A stretch of DNA of 62,803 nt, filler included, from Globobulimina sp. (taxonomy: Eukaryota), in assembly GCA_003354225.1 (NCBI GenBank). It is 42 parts of 42 records of this genome, joined end to end, with 100 filler letters (N's around TTAATTAATTAA, not from the genome) between each part and the next. Parts side by side here need not be neighbours in the genome. Positions count along the whole stretch, not along the records: positions 1,500 to 2,898 come from PIVH01017315.1; 41 more parts are not named here. One strand, written 5' to 3'. Below are positions 1,500-41,850 of the stretch, piece after piece. The position numbers and the translations under genes were made by a program. Under the pieces are notes generated by a model. That model had not been told where the DNA came from. It did no database searches and saw only the letters and a list, made by a program, of their open reading frames with translations. Numbering within the stretch: the stretch's first letter is position 1; each line of letters begins with the position of its first letter.

Positions 1500-2898
1500 A
1501 TATAGTTTTTATAACTCAATCCGGACAAACAATGAGTAATATTAATTAATTGCATTGTTTTTAAACCACCAATAAATAATAGTTCCTGTTCAGAAGGAAA
1601 ACGGGATAACCAACAACAATCAAAACATCTTAATTGTAAATGTGGTACCATTTCAACAATAATTCCCTTATTATGACTAAAATGTAATGCAACAATCCAT
1701 GATGAAGTTGTTGATAAAACACCAAATATCCATGCTTGAGTTGAATCGAATATCATCTCTCTATCAATTCCATGATAAACTGATTCTATATTTCCTTTAA
1801 ACGTTTCTGTGCCATAAACTTCTACCATTTCACGTACATATTTACCAAAATAAAAGAAATTACAATGTCGTTTTTTTAAATCAGATAAACATTGTCTTTC
1901 TTTTAAACGAAACGACTCAGAAAATGCTCTTTGAAAATGCTGTTTTTGTGTTTTTGTTATTGAGCGACTTTAAAAACAGCAAATATTTCAGAAACTTAAC
2001 AGTTAAGGAACAATATAATGTGACACATATTAAATGCTGTAATTTTATTCCTTCTCCATCACGAATTCCGTATTTTGATATATGAAATGGACAATTTCTC
2101 CATTCGACCATATATCCATTAACTTTAGCAACAGTTTGTTTGCATTTGTCAGTTATTTTATGTTGTTTGGCCATACTATAAAAATTATGAAACATAACAT
2201 CACTAATTTGACATATTTTATTATTCATTAATTCAATTTTTAAATTATTATATTTGGGTTTAATGTATAATTCTTTATATTTAATACCGCCACCGGTATA
2301 TGATTCAGGTGCAAGTTTATAATATCCCCAATAATCAAATCTAAATGAATATGAATATTTTAATTTATTATTTATGGTAAGCTGTGATTTGGACATATTA
2401 GTTGCAAATTTGTTAACTGCGCGTTCAGCGTTATGCTCTTTGGACGTTCTGTGAACATGAATTATTTGATCTAATTTGCGTCTTTTTAATGTCAAAATAT
2501 CATTAATAATTTCAATATGTTTTCGTTCTTCATTGCATCCAAATCTTTCGTTATTCAATCTATTTCGTTCTGCGATAGTTAAACGTCCACCAATTTCGTA
2601 ACAATGAACAAAATGGCAATGTATTTGATTTAATATTTGTAAAATTACATTGTTTCTGTTATGTATCGATCGTGATCGGAATCTATAATGTCTTTTAATG
2701 GCATGGCAATCAAATAAATCACATTGTTTTAATAATTTAAACATATAATCAATGTTTAAATTATTTCCATTTTTATCATGAATTAATAAAAAATGATTGA
2801 AACAATTCAATATATTTGTAATATCATCATTACATTGATGGACAAACTCATCTTTCTTTGAATTATTTACGTCAATATTCATTACTTTTTGATATTGT
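1500..2898 (-). CDS. ADP-ribosyltransferase-like family protein, partial; intron 1940-2000
   Basis: A 61-nt GT-AG intron joins ORFs 1917-2882 and 1448-1828; motifs VYHG, STTS, SRFPSEQELLF. Confidence 0.7.
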
Positions 2899-18838: not shown

Positions 18839-19383
18839 TAATCGTCGCTCTTTGGTGAACATTTAAAAATCTCTATTTGGTGTGAATATTGACTCCTGGC
18901 AATCAAACCATTCTTTTCAAATATTTGACGATATTGGGATAAGGTTTCAACTATGGACAATTGACTCTTTTTATGAGGCAATGAACAAGTTATTTTCCGC
19001 AATCTATAATTCTATATTGAGTCCCGACTAAATACGATAATATATCTTTCATTACACTCGAACATAACTTACAATCGAAAACAATGATTCCTTCAATATT
19101 TGGAAATAAAGCAGTAATGACATCCATTTTTATCCATTCAAACTGTGCATCGATAAACAAACTCCATAAAGACACATATTTCTGTTTTCGATTTGCGATA
19201 ATTGTCAAGAATTGTTTATTTCGACAATAAGTATGTATTATATGTTTTGCGTAATTATCTAATGATGCAAACGCAACATATTTATTTGGAAATGCTTGTT
19301 TCAACTGATTTAAAACTATGGCCTCTATTAATCCAAACATAGACTCTGAGACTGAAATACTTTCATCATCATCGATATCAATG
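18839..19383 (-). CDS. C-terminal region of ART-like family protein, apparent frameshift near 19000
   Basis: LDNYAKHIIHTYC resembles IPEYMQQLFKHYC downstream of EQE in 23978-25375; a second frame continues to TAA at ~18839. Confidence 0.45.
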
Positions 19384-23977: not shown

Positions 23978-25375
23978 TTCTTATCCTCTGATAAATATTG
24001 ACGAGTACTCTCACTCAGTTTGGAAAATTCTTCTTTATTTATCCAGATAATATTTCCAAACTGCCGTATTGATACACAATAATGTTTGAAGAGTTGTTGC
24101 ATATACTCCGGGATTTTCAGATCCGCTTCACGATTAATTACAGAGTTCATCATTTTAATCAACGTTTTTTGGTGTTTATTTTTAAATATTTTGGCGTCGT
24201 GCGTGAAAAAATTGCCTTTGGTGATGTTCTGAAACAAACTCAAACATTTTATAAAGTATTTATTTGAGGTATTCTGATATATAATGTCCTGAAATCCCAG
24301 CTGAGCCTGAAAAAATAGCCTTTCTTGCTCGTTTGGCTGAGGGTGTTTGTCAGTGTCGCTGTGAGTGAATGGCAAATAAATACAGACGTACATAGTCGGA
24401 TAGATCCGAAACATCCAAAAAATGAGAATCCAGCGAGGCAAACTTTGATAATTGAACAATGATTCCTTTGTCCGACGAGAAATTGTACGCAACGGATTTA
24501 TTTACGGTGGTTGACGTCGGACAGTTAAACGCAGCAATCACCGAATCGAACAATAATCGACAACTCAAACCATGATAAAACACTTGTTTTTTGGTTACTG
24601 ACTCGCCATAAAACGTCACCGATTCCCAAAGCAGCTTGCACCAATTTGCAATTTCGCGATTTCTTTTTTTGACGCGATCAATTTTTTGATTATCACGCTC
24701 CAAATATCGACAACCTTTTTTGAACTCCTTCTGCAATTCATCCATGTTCGTGTATAGCATTAAAGTGATGATATGGCCCATTGTTATCATTGTATTTGGC
24801 CGAATGCCACAAATGTTGTTCAAGTTACTTTGTCTGCGAGCAATTAGCAAACGGCCACGGTATGACTGCAAATATTGTTCGCATTTTTTAGATATAGAAT
24901 CGAAGTCAAACTCCGAGATTCTGTACAATGCATTGGACAGTATTTCCTGTTTCAAATCCTTCCATTTAGCTTCCACATAATTGGCATGCGTACTGAACTC
25001 GCGATGATATTTAAACTGAGCACCAAAGCCGTACGAGCTCAACACCGCAGTTTGAACTTCATCGTCTTTCTTTTCATCTGTTTTTTGTTCCTCGTCGGTT
25101 TCCAATTTCTCATTTTCTGCTTTGGCAATTTCAGCCGGAATATGCTGCTTTTTTTCTTCGTTGCACTTGACCTTGATTTCAGTGACAAATTTGCTGGAAC
25201 CAGAGCACGCTGCGGAAGAATGTGGATGCAACAGAGTGCAATGTATCATATCAAATAATTGTTGCACATTTGTTTCGGTAATTTCATCACTTTTCATATT
25301 TAACTGTGCCTCGTCAATAAAGTACAGTTTCCTTCGCAATGTGTCAGACTGTGTGCAATCGTCCCTATCCCGATG
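23978..25375 (-). CDS. ADP-ribosyltransferase-like family protein, partial; intron 24337-24391
   Basis: FYHG, PTSTT, GIIVQL, SDY|PNEQERLF after removing a 55-nt intron. Confidence 0.75.
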
Positions 25376-25475: not shown

Positions 25476-25811
25476 GTTGAGAAATCGACATCCCTCAGAC
25501 AATGGCACTTTATCTGGATTTCCGTGCCCTTCGTGTTCCTGTGGGCGGCCATAAAGGGACTCTGGCGCAATCCGAGATTTGCATTTCTCGCACAACTTCT
25601 GATCCTGTATCTCGTTTCGCTGGTGGCGATCTATATTCTATCGCCATGGCGAAATATAGCTATGCACATAAACGTCACTTTTGATCGTGTTACACTTCCA
25701 ATGCTGCCGGTGGTTCTTCTACTCATCCGCGAGTGCCTGGCTCACAGGTCTCAAACTCAAAGGTCTCAAATTGATAGCCCTAAACAAGGAACAGGAATTA
25801 ATCGTGTTTAA
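25476..25811 (+). CDS. Bacterial membrane protein C-terminus
   Basis: Hydrophobic ORF whose stop overlaps the next start (GTGTTTAA). Confidence 0.55.
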   Translation, partial: VEKSTSLRQWHFIWISVPFVFLWAAIKGLWRNPRFAFLAQLLILYLVSLVAIYILSPWRNIAMHINVTFDRVTLPMLPVVLLLIRECLAHRSQTQRSQIDSPKQGTGINRV

Positions 25812-26655
25812 ATTCAGACAAGTTGACACATCACCTGAAGGGATTAGGCAGTGCAGGGAATTTCTTAATGATGTATTTCCAAAGAAATATTCTTATGAAG
25901 CACTGAACTGGATGTATGCAAAAAACCCTGATGTAAAAGCAATTGGATTTAATGCGTATCATAATGACCGGATTGTATCGCATTTTGTCTCGATGCCCAT
26001 AAAGGCAAGGATGTATGGCGAAGAATGCAAAGGAGCACTGTCCCTTAATATAGCAACACATCCTGAATATCAGGGAAAGAAACTTTACGACAAAGTATCA
26101 AATCTCGCCTATGAGTATGCAAATGAAAAGGGTTTTTTGTTTCTCATCGGTGTTGCAAATGCCGCTATTACTCCGATATACATCAACAAACAGAATTACC
26201 AGCTTGTTAAACCACTTGATGTGAAAATCGGCATAGGGAACATCAATGAGATCAATCAAAATTATGATGACTACGAATATAAAAGAATTTGGACAAAAGA
26301 GACACTACAGTGGCGGCTTTCAAACCCGACAATGCAATACAAATTCATTAAAAAAAAGAGTGTGCACTATGCAATAGCCCCAAACCAAAAGCTCGGAATA
26401 GGTGTTTTGCTTGGGAAATATAATGCCGATTTCCTTGCCCCTGACTTTCTTAAAGAGCACCGGGGTATAAATCCCGTTAATATTTGGATGGGAGTCGATC
26501 ACAATATTCGCTGGAAATCTTCTTTATATATGTATTTTCCCGATAAACTAAAGCCTTCGCCCCTGAACCTCATATTCAAGGACCTGGGTAATAGCGGGCT
26601 GCAGTTGAATCCTGAAAAAACCCTCTTCAACAGCATGGATTTTGATGTATACTGA
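25804..26655 (+). CDS. Bacterial GNAT N-acetyltransferase
   Basis: IATHPEYQGKKL acetyl-CoA motif, GVAN, C-terminal DFDVY; GTG start with AGGA upstream; intronless. Confidence 0.85.
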   Translation: MFKFRQVDTSPEGIRQCREFLNDVFPKKYSYEALNWMYAKNPDVKAIGFNAYHNDRIVSHFVSMPIKARMYGEECKGALSLNIATHPEYQGKKLYDKVSNLAYEYANEKGFLFLIGVANAAITPIYINKQNYQLVKPLDVKIGIGNINEINQNYDDYEYKRIWTKETLQWRLSNPTMQYKFIKKKSVHYAIAPNQKLGIGVLLGKYNADFLAPDFLKEHRGINPVNIWMGVDHNIRWKSSLYMYFPDKLKPSPLNLIFKDLGNSGLQLNPEKTLFNSMDFDVY

Positions 26656-26973
26656 TTATTTCATTAGGAATACATTGAGTATTTTAGCGTTAAACCTTCC
26701 TGGCAGAAAAATTTATAATTCCGGAAGGCCCAATAAATAAGTCAATCGGACTGATCAGGGACGCTGTTGCTAAATTAAAGAGCCATCCAAATCCTTCCCG
26801 CCTTATATGGCCGCCTTTTCCCTCATGAGATCGTGACGCGAGACTGACCGCCAGACCTGCCGGATCAAAACCCNNNNNNNNNNNNNNNNNNNNNNNNNNN
26901 NNNNNNNNNNNNNNNNNTTAATTAATTAANNNNNNNNNNNNNNNNNNNNNNNNNNNNNNNNNNNNNNNNNNNN

Positions 26974-34463: not shown

Positions 34464-35861
34464 GCCGCATAGTTCGACAAGAATATCTGTTGTAATTGAT
34501 AGTAATTGCAATATAATAATATACTGCAGATATGGTTGATTTTGATCGGCGTATATTCATAGATGCCATACTTATCCACCATTGATTCAACCATCGATTG
34601 TATAGCTCCGTTGCCATTATCATCGTCATCGCCTAACCAATCATACGATAAATATTGCGATGCGTTATCACTTTCGCTCAAACACGCTGCAGATTCGTAT
34701 AAATCATTCCATTGCTGCATGGATATACAGCATAAAGTATTCGATGTCATTTCCTCTTTTAAATTTTCATATTGTTTAGTTACATACCACTCATTTTCTT
34801 TGCATTCGTCCCAATATAATAACTCTACAAAACCAAACTCAAAGTATTCACTTTCCGTTTTTTCATCAGTCTTAAAATTGACATCTAAACGATTGAAATT
34901 GGGGGGAATCTCCACAAAACCTGCAAATCCATCATCCTCTGCATCCTTTTCGTCCTCTGGTTGCTGTGTTTCTTTTTCTTTTTCTTCTTTTGTGTCTTGT
35001 TTGCGTTCCCCATTAACATCAATCATAAATTTTCTCTGTCTCTCATTGATTCTGAATATCTGCTTTGCGTCGGAGATCCACGCTTTTTTTGCTTTTAACA
35101 TTTTATTCGATGTCACTAATTTATCCGTCTCGTCATAGTCTTTGATCCGCGCCCATTCGAAGGGTTGCAACATTAATACATCATAACTGTACAGGATATA
35201 TGAATATATTCTATCCAATAGACACTGCGCATTGATTTCTTTCACATCGTCGCAACCATTAAATAACATATTCCTCTGTGCATTATACTGAATATAAAAT
35301 AATTTATCTCTCATATTCCGCATTAATAGCAATGAATGTTGCGGCGGAATGGCTGGTTTCTCAGTGTCTTTGCCGAGGATATATCTATAAATCTCCACAA
35401 ACGTTTGTCTGTTACCGGCAAAACTTTGCAATAAGAAATTAAAATCATTTAATAAGTGCTTATTGGAATAATCCTTCAAATCATTATTCAATATCTCCCA
35501 AATCCCTTTCGATTTGCTGCTGCCCGCTGCTTTAAAGCCAGTGCTAATCTTATTCTGTAGTTTGGGGGAAAGCGAGAGAGGGCTGCTTTCATATTCAAAT
35601 TGTTTATTAGAACTACACCATTTCGCATAAATATCCAATATATATTTGATGCGTTGCTTCGTTTTATCCATATTTTGAACAATATCCACAAATAATGCTG
35701 CATTGGCGTCATAATTTATAGTTTTTTTGCCTTCATCTAACATTTTTAACCATTCCTGTCGTTTTTGTTCACTGTCAGCGTTTAGGCACCACACTCGATC
35801 CGTTGTTTGTAGGTTGACTATGAAATTCCCATATGGCGGTACCGGAGAACATTCTCTGATC
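34464..35861 (-). CDS. PH domain plus N-terminal region of ART-like family protein, partial
   Basis: RVWCLNADSEQKRQEWLKML (PH C-helix); YENLKEEM.SN...KYGI...HICSILLYCN aligns with the other ART-like members. Confidence 0.65.
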
Positions 35862-40453: not shown

Positions 40454-40658
40454 GGCCGCGGAACATGACAGCACTGATCTGCGCATCGGGATCTTTTAAT
40501 GTAAAATAATAATGGCCTGAACCGGGAGCGCTAAAATTCGATATTTCTCCTGATATCCAAATGATAGGAAAGCTATCTTCAAGTAATTCTTTAATATCAT
40601 TTGTGAGTCTTGAAACGGTGTAGATTTTTTTTTGTATTGAATGTTCGTTAAATTGCAC
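40454..40658 (-). CDS. xseA: Exodeoxyribonuclease VII large subunit N-terminus (bacterial)
   Basis: YTVSRLT..IK.LLE, WISGEISNF, SGHYYFTLKD..AQI.AVMFR. Confidence 0.95.
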
Positions 40659-40854
40659 AGTAAATAATTTAATTATATGGTATGGATTGAGAGTATAATG
40701 TTAATAAAACGTGTTATATCAGATTGAATTGAAATATCGTCTTTTGTAATAATATATATGTCCGATCAAATATCCTATCATACATACCGGTAACGTCTGA
40801 TAAGATATATTATGTAAACTTTTATTGGGTCAATAGCAATTTCCCCCTTTCGAC

Positions 40855-41130
40855 TTATTCAATTTGCTTTGCATGCTTCTCGAGGATTTCACGTATACTG
40901 GGAACGATATATATAGCATCAACAGGCATCGTGCATAAACATAAGGCCAGGATTTCATTTTTATCACGAACAGATTTGTGCTTATCCATTATAAATACAT
41001 TTTCCCCTTTTACTTTGCACAAACCGCTTTTTACTTTTAATCCCGAAATTCGAAGATTCTGTTCTAATACTGTTATGCCAAGTTTATCTGCAAGATCTTT
41101 TAAATTCTGGTAAAGCTCTTCTGGTTTCAT
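40855..41130 (-). CDS. Bacterial hypothetical protein
   Basis: 91-aa ORF with LGI.V, GLCKVKG and YIVPSIRE motifs. Confidence 0.7.
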   Translation of the reverse strand: MKPEELYQNLKDLADKLGITVLEQNLRISGLKVKSGLCKVKGENVFIMDKHKSVRDKNEILALCLCTMPVDAIYIVPSIREILEKHAKQIE

Positions 41131-41192
41131 TTTAAAATTTTAATAAAACATTTTTTACTTCATTGCAAACCAAATAATATTACAGACTAAAA

Positions 41193-41230
41193 CAAAAAAG
41201 GCTTAGCTGAAAACAGCGAAGCCTTTTTTG
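41193..41230 (-). terminator. Intrinsic terminator (bidirectional) after tRNA-Cys
   Basis: CAAAAAAGGCTT...AAGCCTTTTTTG hairpin with A/T tracts on both sides. Confidence 0.8.
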
Positions 41231-41235
41231 TTTTA

Positions 41236-41310
41236 TGGAGGCGGCAACCAGATTCGAACTGGTGAATGGCGGTTTTGCAGACCGCTGCCTTACCACTTGG
41301 CTATGCCGCC
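41236..41310 (-). tRNA. tRNA-Cys(GCA), bacterial, CCA encoded
   Basis: GGCGGCATAGCCAAGTGGTAAGGC...CTGCAAA...GGTTCGAATC...GCCGCCTCCA. Confidence 0.95.
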
Positions 41311-41506
41311 TAAGGAACGGAAATTAAATAAATTGAACAGATTTCATTTCAGCTTCAGCTCAACAGTATTTGATCCTGTATTTTTAAAACCTCAAAATAG
41401 TTCACTATTAATTCAACTTTAAAAAAAATTCAGGGTCAAATACTGTTAAACCAAATCTGAACGAACTACATTCAAGTTGTTTTATTTACGTTCTCCCAAA
41501 AAAAAA

Positions 41507-41581
41507 TGCAGCCGGAAACGGGATTTGAACCTGCCACTCCGACCTTGGCAAGGTCGCACTCTACCACTGAGTTATTCCCGC
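41507..41581 (-). tRNA. tRNA-Gly(GCC), degenerate 3' half
   Basis: GCGGGAATAACTCAGTGGTAGAGTG-CGACC-TTGCCAA-GGTCG intact; G-G mismatch in acceptor, A-C in T stem, ends TGCA. Confidence 0.8.
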
Positions 41582-41645
41582 TCAGTAAGACCATTTAATT
41601 AGCTTCTTACAGTATATCTGTCAATAAAAAAAACGACGCACTCAC

Positions 41646-41850
41646 TTATTTGCATTTTTCCAGTCTTTTAAAAAAGCATCAAGGCCTTTATCCGTCAATG
41701 GATGGGAAGCAAGTTTTGCCAGAACGTTAAAAGGAATTGTAGCAATATCTGCACCCATTAAGGCGGATTCAAGCACATGAAGCGGATTACGTATACTGGC
41801 AACAATAACTTCAGTTTCAAAATCATAGTTGTTGTAAATTTCAACAATCT
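41646..41850 (-). CDS. Transaldolase / fructose-6-phosphate aldolase C-terminus (bacterial)
   Basis: [25 protein letters not shown]...[13 protein letters not shown]. Confidence 0.93.

Follow-up and report, generated by a model that had tools for sequence, protein, structure and literature searches.

ADP-ribosyltransferases (ARTs) are classed by their triad as R-S-E, H-Y-E or H-H-h. The locus described here raises the question of whether a gene whose product carries His at the position of the first Arg of R-S-E enzymes belongs to this superfamily and, if it does, what that product would do. The window, by which we mean the whole stretch of DNA analysed (62,803 nucleotides from Globobulimina sp., filler included), is composed of 42 unlinked contigs of about 1.4 kb each, separated by N linkers and mostly AT-rich. 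Spliceosomal-type introns, ribosomal protein L19e and a copia integrase are eukaryotic marks among these contigs, and the standard code applies.

The second contig (1500-2898) carries a single minus-strand gene with one intron, cut by the contig ends at both 5′ and 3′ sides. Its upstream exon (2001-2898, 5′ end cut) encodes a Cys/His domain followed by the helical N-lobe of the ART domain; it matched the family profile at E 4.5e-67 and was 38% identical to residues 165-443 of the homologue P0010. The downstream exon (1500-1939, 3′ end cut) encodes a six-stranded ART core. Introns were chosen by scoring frame-restoring GT-AG candidates, nine per gene, against the family HMM. In contig 2, the 61-nt intron at 1940-2000 (minus strand) ranked first, with 228.8 bits against 215.7 for the runner-up, and its removal gave back the exact register of unspliced homologues. 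Because these GT-AG boundaries restore the register exactly, we rejected the reading of the gene as frameshifted or as a pseudogene. A paralogue fills contig 17 (23978-25375, minus strand; exons 24392-25375 and 23978-24336) and shares 34% identity with contig 2 across 103 aa. Its 55-nt intron (24337-24391) scored 183.7 bits against 165.8 for the runner-up among nine candidates, and homologues 74-75% identical to contig 17 were continuous across the splice junction. The original prediction had read YHG, STT and EQE motifs in both genes after splicing, and all of them were found in place: at 1769-1777, 1706-1714 and 1583-1591 in contig 2 (minus strand), and at 24569-24577, 24506-24514 and 24322-24330 in contig 17, where the H-S-ExE set is likewise intact.

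To the same family belong two further genes in the window. Contig 24 (34464-35861, minus strand) encodes the end of a PH-like domain (a weak Pfam match, PH_8, E 0.13), a degenerate Cys/His domain and the ART helical lobe (profile E 4e-37), and stops short of the catalytic motifs at the contig end. On contig 13, the segment 18993-19382 (minus strand) matched the family C-terminal (LFP) domain at E 2e-9 against P0002 and E 3e-17 against the profile, in agreement with the suggestion that 18839-19383 is a family C-terminus; a possible extra exon at 18841-19011 was not significant (E 0.76). The same contig 13 piece gave a 33-aa HP1451_C match in Pfam (E 4.6e-6, above the cut-off), which we treated as chance in view of the profile match of this piece to the family C-terminus (E 3e-17). 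Each of the four genes is truncated where its contig ends. We searched 1,289 stop-to-stop ORFs of at least 25 aa from the window, and the same 1,289 reversed as a control, with the family profile. Six ORFs were significant (E 9e-68 to 5e-12), on exactly the four contigs that had been proposed (2, 13, 17 and 24); the next-ranked ORF stood at E 0.32, and among the reversed ORFs the lowest value was E 0.033. The family thus occupies 4 of 42 contigs (9.5%; 95% interval 2.7-22.6%), a fraction that gives no genome-wide density because short contigs are perhaps enriched for multicopy genes. Pfam, run on six window pieces, returned neither a match to the ART family PF01129 nor any significant family-related match. 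Third-position GC was 0.14-0.17 in contig 2 (1502-2897) and 0.38-0.43 in contigs 17 (24392-25375) and 24 (34466-35860), a contrast that could reflect mixed genomes or regional bias, so that a single genome as the source of all the paralogues is not a given.

Other contigs carry coding regions of different kinds. An unbroken Ty1/copia-type pol ORF (gag-pre-integrase, rve and SH3) runs the width of contig 12 (16488-17885), and a LINE-like endonuclease ORF (Exo_endo_phos_2, E 6e-6) spans contig 19 (26976-28370). Three consecutive plus-strand ORFs on contig 25 (35962-37359) we take to resemble the C-terminus of a Polinton/Maverick-type penton, a basic core protein and the N-terminus of a hexon; the two that were scanned had no Pfam or NCBIfam match, and none of the three had a PHROG match. 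A tandem MATH-domain protein, another type of ubiquitin-system adaptor, is encoded on contig 16 (22480-23877). A 229-aa ORF on contig 38 (55962-56648), without a Pfam match, looks like an F-box-like N-terminus joined to an SPRY-like domain. Contigs 18 (25476-26873) and 28 (40454-41850) hold bacterial-looking ORFs, for a GNAT acetyltransferase and a small conserved protein, respectively, suggesting a contaminant or symbiont origin.

To place the protein in a fold class, we modelled the downstream exon of contig 2 by AlphaFold with 112 homologues. The model (pLDDT 95.6) has six strands and shows the split β-sheet core of the ART superfamily. H56 (strand E54-58), S76 (strand E75-78) and E119 (strand E119-122) fall on strands 1, 2 and 5, and the parts of PMC7827354 available put ART triad residues canonically on β1, β2 and β5. 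The ARTT loop (S-R-F-P-S-E-Q-E) closes with EQE, and the last Glu of this motif opens β5. VIA-align gave ART2.2 as the top match (Z 8.7, rmsd 2.6, 120 residues), and almost all of its top 50 were ART-fold proteins. Foldseek alone also put ART2.2 first, at E 2.9e-3, with no match at E <= 1e-3, so that the case for the fold rests on the concordant VIA-align results. From the ends of the aligned ranges (model residue 135, chain residue 204), Glu119 of the model would lie near E189, which is mutated in ART2.2 entries.

The tool itself warns that VIA-align scores of Z < 8 can be unspecific, and for this reason we took the result for the full-length homologue P0010 (model pLDDT 90.8) as stronger. 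Residues 322-588 of P0010 aligned with residues 4-208 of ART2.2 at Z 13.4-13.9 (rmsd 3.4, 192-195 residues), followed by XopAI (Z 11.4), Tre1 (11.1), HopU1 (10.5), ExoS (9.5), C3 (8.2) and VIP2 (7.1). Because this alignment extends across ART2.2 including its N-lobe, the helical region upstream of the motifs, which the original prediction described as shared with contig 24, is the helical lobe of the ART domain and not a unit of its own. In contig 2 this lobe includes LYC (2010-2018, minus strand), part of a conserved H-x6-Y helix (H in 79/82 and Y in 80/82 rows of an 86-row alignment). The ESM Atlas returned PF01129/PF03496 ART clusters at 0.96. Sequence searches of the PDB found no match for the ART core, giving one irrelevant hit at E 1.4 and otherwise PUB and UBA matches only, and PHROGs, PADLOC and NCBIfam held nothing meaningful for the family. 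Profile alignments with T4 ModB and Alt had the motifs in register but fell short of significance (probability 5.5% and 0.1%). The PF01129 gathering cut-off is 22.3 bits, and the best scores, from 2 of 102 homologues, were 21.7 and 20.6 bits (E 1e-4 to 3e-4).

How widespread, and how constant, is the His? A family profile of 7 rows and 660 positions, including flanks, matched 4,237, 3,109 and 1,356 clusters (50% identity) at E <= 1e-3, 1e-10 and 1e-30, respectively; with flanks in the profile and His-bearing seeds, some of the weaker matches may be to other regions or to Arg-type ARTs. The strictest of these counts agrees with the large family that had been proposed. The motif tally was made from the best 150 clusters. 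We assembled 184 homologous proteins from EukProt, ENA, NCBI, JGI and MERC records, of which 177 yielded 188 domains covering every motif column (15 of 203 aligned rows were partial and were dropped). The first-strand residue was His in 170 of these domains, Cys in 7, Ser in 4, Phe, Gln and Arg in 2 each and Tyr in 1, in a tally of best matches that is biased towards His by the His-bearing seeds of the profile. The full H-S-ExE triad was present in 168 of 188, as expected for the variant clade that the motifs of contigs 2 and 17 had suggested.

An aromatic residue precedes the His position in 186/188 domains, and the residue after HG is hydrophobic in about 96% (I 63%, V 19%, L 10%, M 4%). The second motif reads S-[TS]-[STQ] in 172/188, with the β2 Ser in 156/157 rows. 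ExE was found in 185/188 domains and QxE in 1/188, and the ARTT-loop aromatic residue in 180/188. In the 86-row full-length alignment, the two Glu residues were the sole invariant internal columns (86/86 each), with S at 85/86, H at 84/86 and R456 at 80/81. Divergence among the paralogues is deep (median end branch 0.61) in a tree made by a quick method with no outgroup, in which 100 of 185 inner branches are unresolved and from which neither a root nor a date for the His is obtainable. Both Arg-bearing domains are long branches and sit in tandem-domain proteins whose partner domain has His; tandem ART domains occur in 9 of the first 151 homologues. Homologues with tandem ART domains or motif-1 variants include P0115, P0076, P0075, P0067, P0166, P0179 and P0180, and the domains with Cys in motif 1 form a small group.

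The surroundings of the ART domain bear on what the proteins might do. Homologues are multidomain proteins of 600-3000 aa that share an order of domains: a variable N-terminal module, the Cys/His domain, the ART domain, a helical connector and an α/β C-terminal domain. In contig 2 the putative zinc-binding helical domain (2604-2795, minus strand) follows the column pattern H-x4-H ... C-x4-C ... H-C-x3-H with all ligands intact, and in the family HHCCHH was found in 65 of the 74 rows, among 86 aligned, that are complete at the six columns. This arrangement of ligands is what suggests zinc binding; within the full-length model the domain had no clear fold match. The C-terminal domain of that model gave weak LRR matches only (COI1 Z 5.3, TIR1 Z 5.4). 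UBA domains bind ubiquitin and PITH domains associate with the proteasome. A Pfam scan of 102 longer homologues, picked from 151, found PUB in 24, UBA in 18 and PITH in 9 (E <= 1e-3), with at least one of the three in 37 and none in 65. Binding of PUB to p97 is given in the titles of matching PDB entries, and the PUB fold of P0010 was confirmed structurally (Z 12.8-13, rmsd 1.7). Rarer fusions among the 102 were PH (twice) and CHY, MYND, RanBP zinc-finger and CAP-Gly (once each). The N-terminal module of the contig 2 gene itself lies beyond the contig end. A crude hydropathy screen found a hydrophobic N-terminal stretch in 7 of 125 long Met-start homologues, which suggests that the family proteins are cytosolic. 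Subfamilies with PH and ankyrin repeats, FH2 or CAP-Gly (P0152-P0159, P0176, P0180 and P0117) were also seen, hinting at membrane and cytoskeleton targets. The fused domains point to the ubiquitin-p97-proteasome system, more specifically than to 'defence'.

We predict that the family consists of active intracellular mono-ARTs, structurally of the ART2.2/HopU1/ExoS group and probably directed at Arg, whose active site is a hybrid; to this reading of sequences and models we assign a probability of about 0.55. The site would combine an aromatic-His-Gly first strand of the diphtheria-toxin/PARP type with three features of R-S-E ARTs: the STT strand, the helical lobe and the F-x-x-E-x-E loop. NAD+ would be held in the cleft, where the His would contact the adenosine ribose as in His-clade ARTs; a role of the β1 His in NAD+ binding in the H-Y-E and H-H-h clades is described in excerpts of PMC7827354, PMC8120803 and PMC10789625. 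The conserved Arg of FS-x-T-[YF]-R, and perhaps K-x-R-H too, would hold the NAD+ phosphates. This Arg (SFR at 1907-1915, minus strand, in contig 2) lies upstream of the triad in 159/173 rows, is preceded by F/Y as against the x-[LVI]-R of R-S-E ARTs, and by its position is probably the equivalent of their second NAD-binding Arg, the 'aliph-R' described for ARTs in extracts from PMC6829252. K-x-R-H corresponds to a family-specific basic patch (KRH at 1865-1873, minus strand; R 76/86, H 73/86). The second Glu of ExE would drive nicotinamide release and the first would pick the acceptor; we propose Arg because ExE is given as a mark of Arg specificity in passages of PMC3102197. Swappable N-terminal modules (PUB, UBA, PITH, PH, ankyrin, FH2 and CAP-Gly) would steer single paralogues, most clearly to ubiquitylated or p97/proteasome-bound proteins, and the family would have grown into a large lineage-specific repertoire. 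As judged from the fusions, mono-ADP-ribosylation by the family is probably aimed through the ubiquitin/p97/proteasome system.

Several observations count against activity. The β1 Arg, a principal NAD-binding residue of R-S-E ARTs, is lost in 186/188 domains, and the Ser/Thr that follows HG in the HX[ST] motifs of His-clade ARTs is absent. ARTC3 and ARTC4 of mammals are thought to be inactive, as far as excerpts of PMC10789625 state, and XopAI, which has lost the β1 Arg and kept ExE, is proposed in the extracts from PMC6829252 to be a non-catalytic binder of Arg peptides. The proteins could then be catalytically dead pseudo-ARTs, adaptors or readers in the manner of XopAI, whose clefts bind Arg peptides, NAD+ or ADP-ribosylated or ubiquitylated clients. 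This would suit the second-best structural family being XopAI, which according to the same extracts binds an Arg peptide via the same loops, and the fused domains being mostly adaptor modules. XopAI, however, has also lost the STS Ser and has Glu in place of the second Arg, whereas the present family keeps both S-[TS]-[STQ] and the upstream Arg, and a single replacement, His, is fixed across deeply diverged paralogues. We consider a dead enzyme unlikely.

An enzyme with an intact catalytic Glu might instead be mainly an NAD+ glycohydrolase, as some ARTCs chiefly are (ARTC5, in excerpts of PMC10789625). The family would then supply switchable effectors of defence or cell death that deplete NAD or produce ADP-ribose, with the Cys/His and LRR-like domains as their gates, and the big expansion, the variable N-terminal modules and the nine proteins with tandem ARTs do resemble immune-type repertoires. 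The conservation of ExE and of the ARTT aromatic, which pure hydrolysis would not be expected to require, makes this quite improbable. PADLOC matched 0 of 5 proteins, which says little for a eukaryotic family. Very unlikely, finally, is an enzyme that does transfer, but to a non-Arg or even non-protein acceptor (a nucleic acid or small molecule) or from a different dinucleotide donor, with the His as part of a changed specificity: His-clade ARTs do include RNA- and antibiotic-modifying enzymes, KptA/Tpt1 (Z 6.4-6.7) and Arr (Z 6.8) are among the fold matches and the family has conserved basic and His residues of its own, but the ExE loop is the Arg-specific signature, with QxE in a single domain, and the fused modules found are protein-binding.

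We conclude that this is a genuine and very large H-S-ExE variant of ART2.2-type ARTs, with fusions linked to ubiquitin and p97, and apparently undescribed so far; published ART classifications could already list the clade. In a literature of mostly open-access coverage we found no H-S-E ADP-ribosyltransferase clade, nor foraminiferan, Reticulomyxa or PUB/UBA-fused ARTs matching the family. A conserved clade of this kind shows a first-strand His to be compatible with the R-S-E scaffold, and it offers a natural test of that residue in NAD+ binding. The available parts of a 2010 review (PMC3102197) describe Arg-specific ARTs as seemingly lacking in unicellular eukaryotes; contrary to this, the ESM Atlas clusters suggest that unicellular eukaryotes do have such ARTs. 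Since the family is nearly invisible to Pfam, numbers more than 1,300 clusters and lies on about one in ten of the sampled contigs, it may explain many 'hypothetical proteins'. New here are the conserved Cys/His domain before the ART domain and the weakly LRR-like domain after it, as well as the PUB, UBA or PITH fusions, which provide a direct, testable tie of mono-ADP-ribosylation to protein degradation in a eukaryote. It is conceivable, if doubtful, that H-S-ExE is a third type of ART site, expanded to hundreds or thousands of paralogues in one protist lineage, whose members dock on p97, ubiquitin chains or the proteasome and place Arg-linked ADP-ribose on ubiquitin or ubiquitylated clients. 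If true, this would be a host counterpart of ubiquitin ADP-ribosylation by bacterial effectors, and a large signalling or anti-symbiont layer with a novel Cys/His sensor domain.

Among known systems, the vertebrate ecto-ARTs (ART2.2/ARTC, PF01129) are the best structural match, including the helical N-lobe, and share the ST[TS] and ExE motifs. They differ from the family in having Arg where it has His in β1, in sequence (12-18% identity, below the Pfam cut-off), and in that, by the crude hydropathy screen, signs of a signal peptide are rare among the large multidomain proteins described here. The bacterial Arg-specific effectors HopU1, Tre1 and ExoS fall in the same structural subgroup (Z 9.5-11.1) and have the ExE loop, and the α-helical N-lobe that packs on the core in the ART2.2/HopU1/ExoS subgroup is also present in P0010 (322-588); unlike these effectors, the family gene is host-encoded, contains an intron and has His in β1. 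The mART domain of SdeA/SidE, which modifies Arg42 of ubiquitin, falls in this subgroup as well (SidE, Z 6.9-7.9) and likewise has the ExE loop. XopAI is alike in fold, in replacement of the β1 Arg and in the retained ExE, but carries, according to extracts from PMC6829252, Thr in β1, AAS at the STS position and Glu at that of the second Arg, where the family has His, Ser and Arg.

The original prediction had compared the motifs with those of the cholera-toxin/VIP2 clade, which is not the nearest group by structure. VIP2/C3/iota and cholera-toxin ARTs share the core, STS and the ExE/QxE layout, but their matches are weaker (VIP2 Z 7.1-7.3, C3 7.9-8.2, heat-labile toxin 5.4 over 88 residues) than those of ART2.2, XopAI, Tre1, HopU1 and ExoS, and no AB-toxin parts were seen in the family. 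By language-model features, without alignment, the closest neighbours are ART clusters from haptophytes, rotifers and giant viruses, none of them characterised (ESM Atlas and BFVD, 0.95-0.96). A giant-virus cluster of 393 members (score 0.95) and, by Foldseek, Mimivirus and Solivirus models (E >= 1.7e-3) lie near P0010 320-600 or window 1502-1939; we regard them as a lead for the origin of the family and not as evidence of transfer. Prokaryote, phage and plasmid collections, in searches that detect close relatives only, held no credible relative (phages 0, plasmids 4 at E 0.2), and the sole GTDB match, of 23 aa, lay inside an ABC-transporter gene and was rejected.

A mixed triad has a precedent in DUF2971, for which excerpts of bioRxiv 2024.07.30.605764 give a weak His, a Tyr and ExE; H-S-ExE is not mentioned in these excerpts. 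The ARTD/H-Y-E clade (diphtheria toxin, PARPs and AACRNL) shares the aromatic-His-Gly of β1, but the family differs from it in having Ser and not Tyr in β2, no Ser/Thr after HG and an ARTT loop, and the clade is structurally remote (PARPs Z <= 4.9; diphtheria toxin Z 7.7 over 94 residues only). The family is a member of the ART superfamily and is apparently constructed as an R-S-ExE enzyme, yet has neither the β1 Arg of the R-S-E class nor the β2 Tyr of the H-Y-E class.
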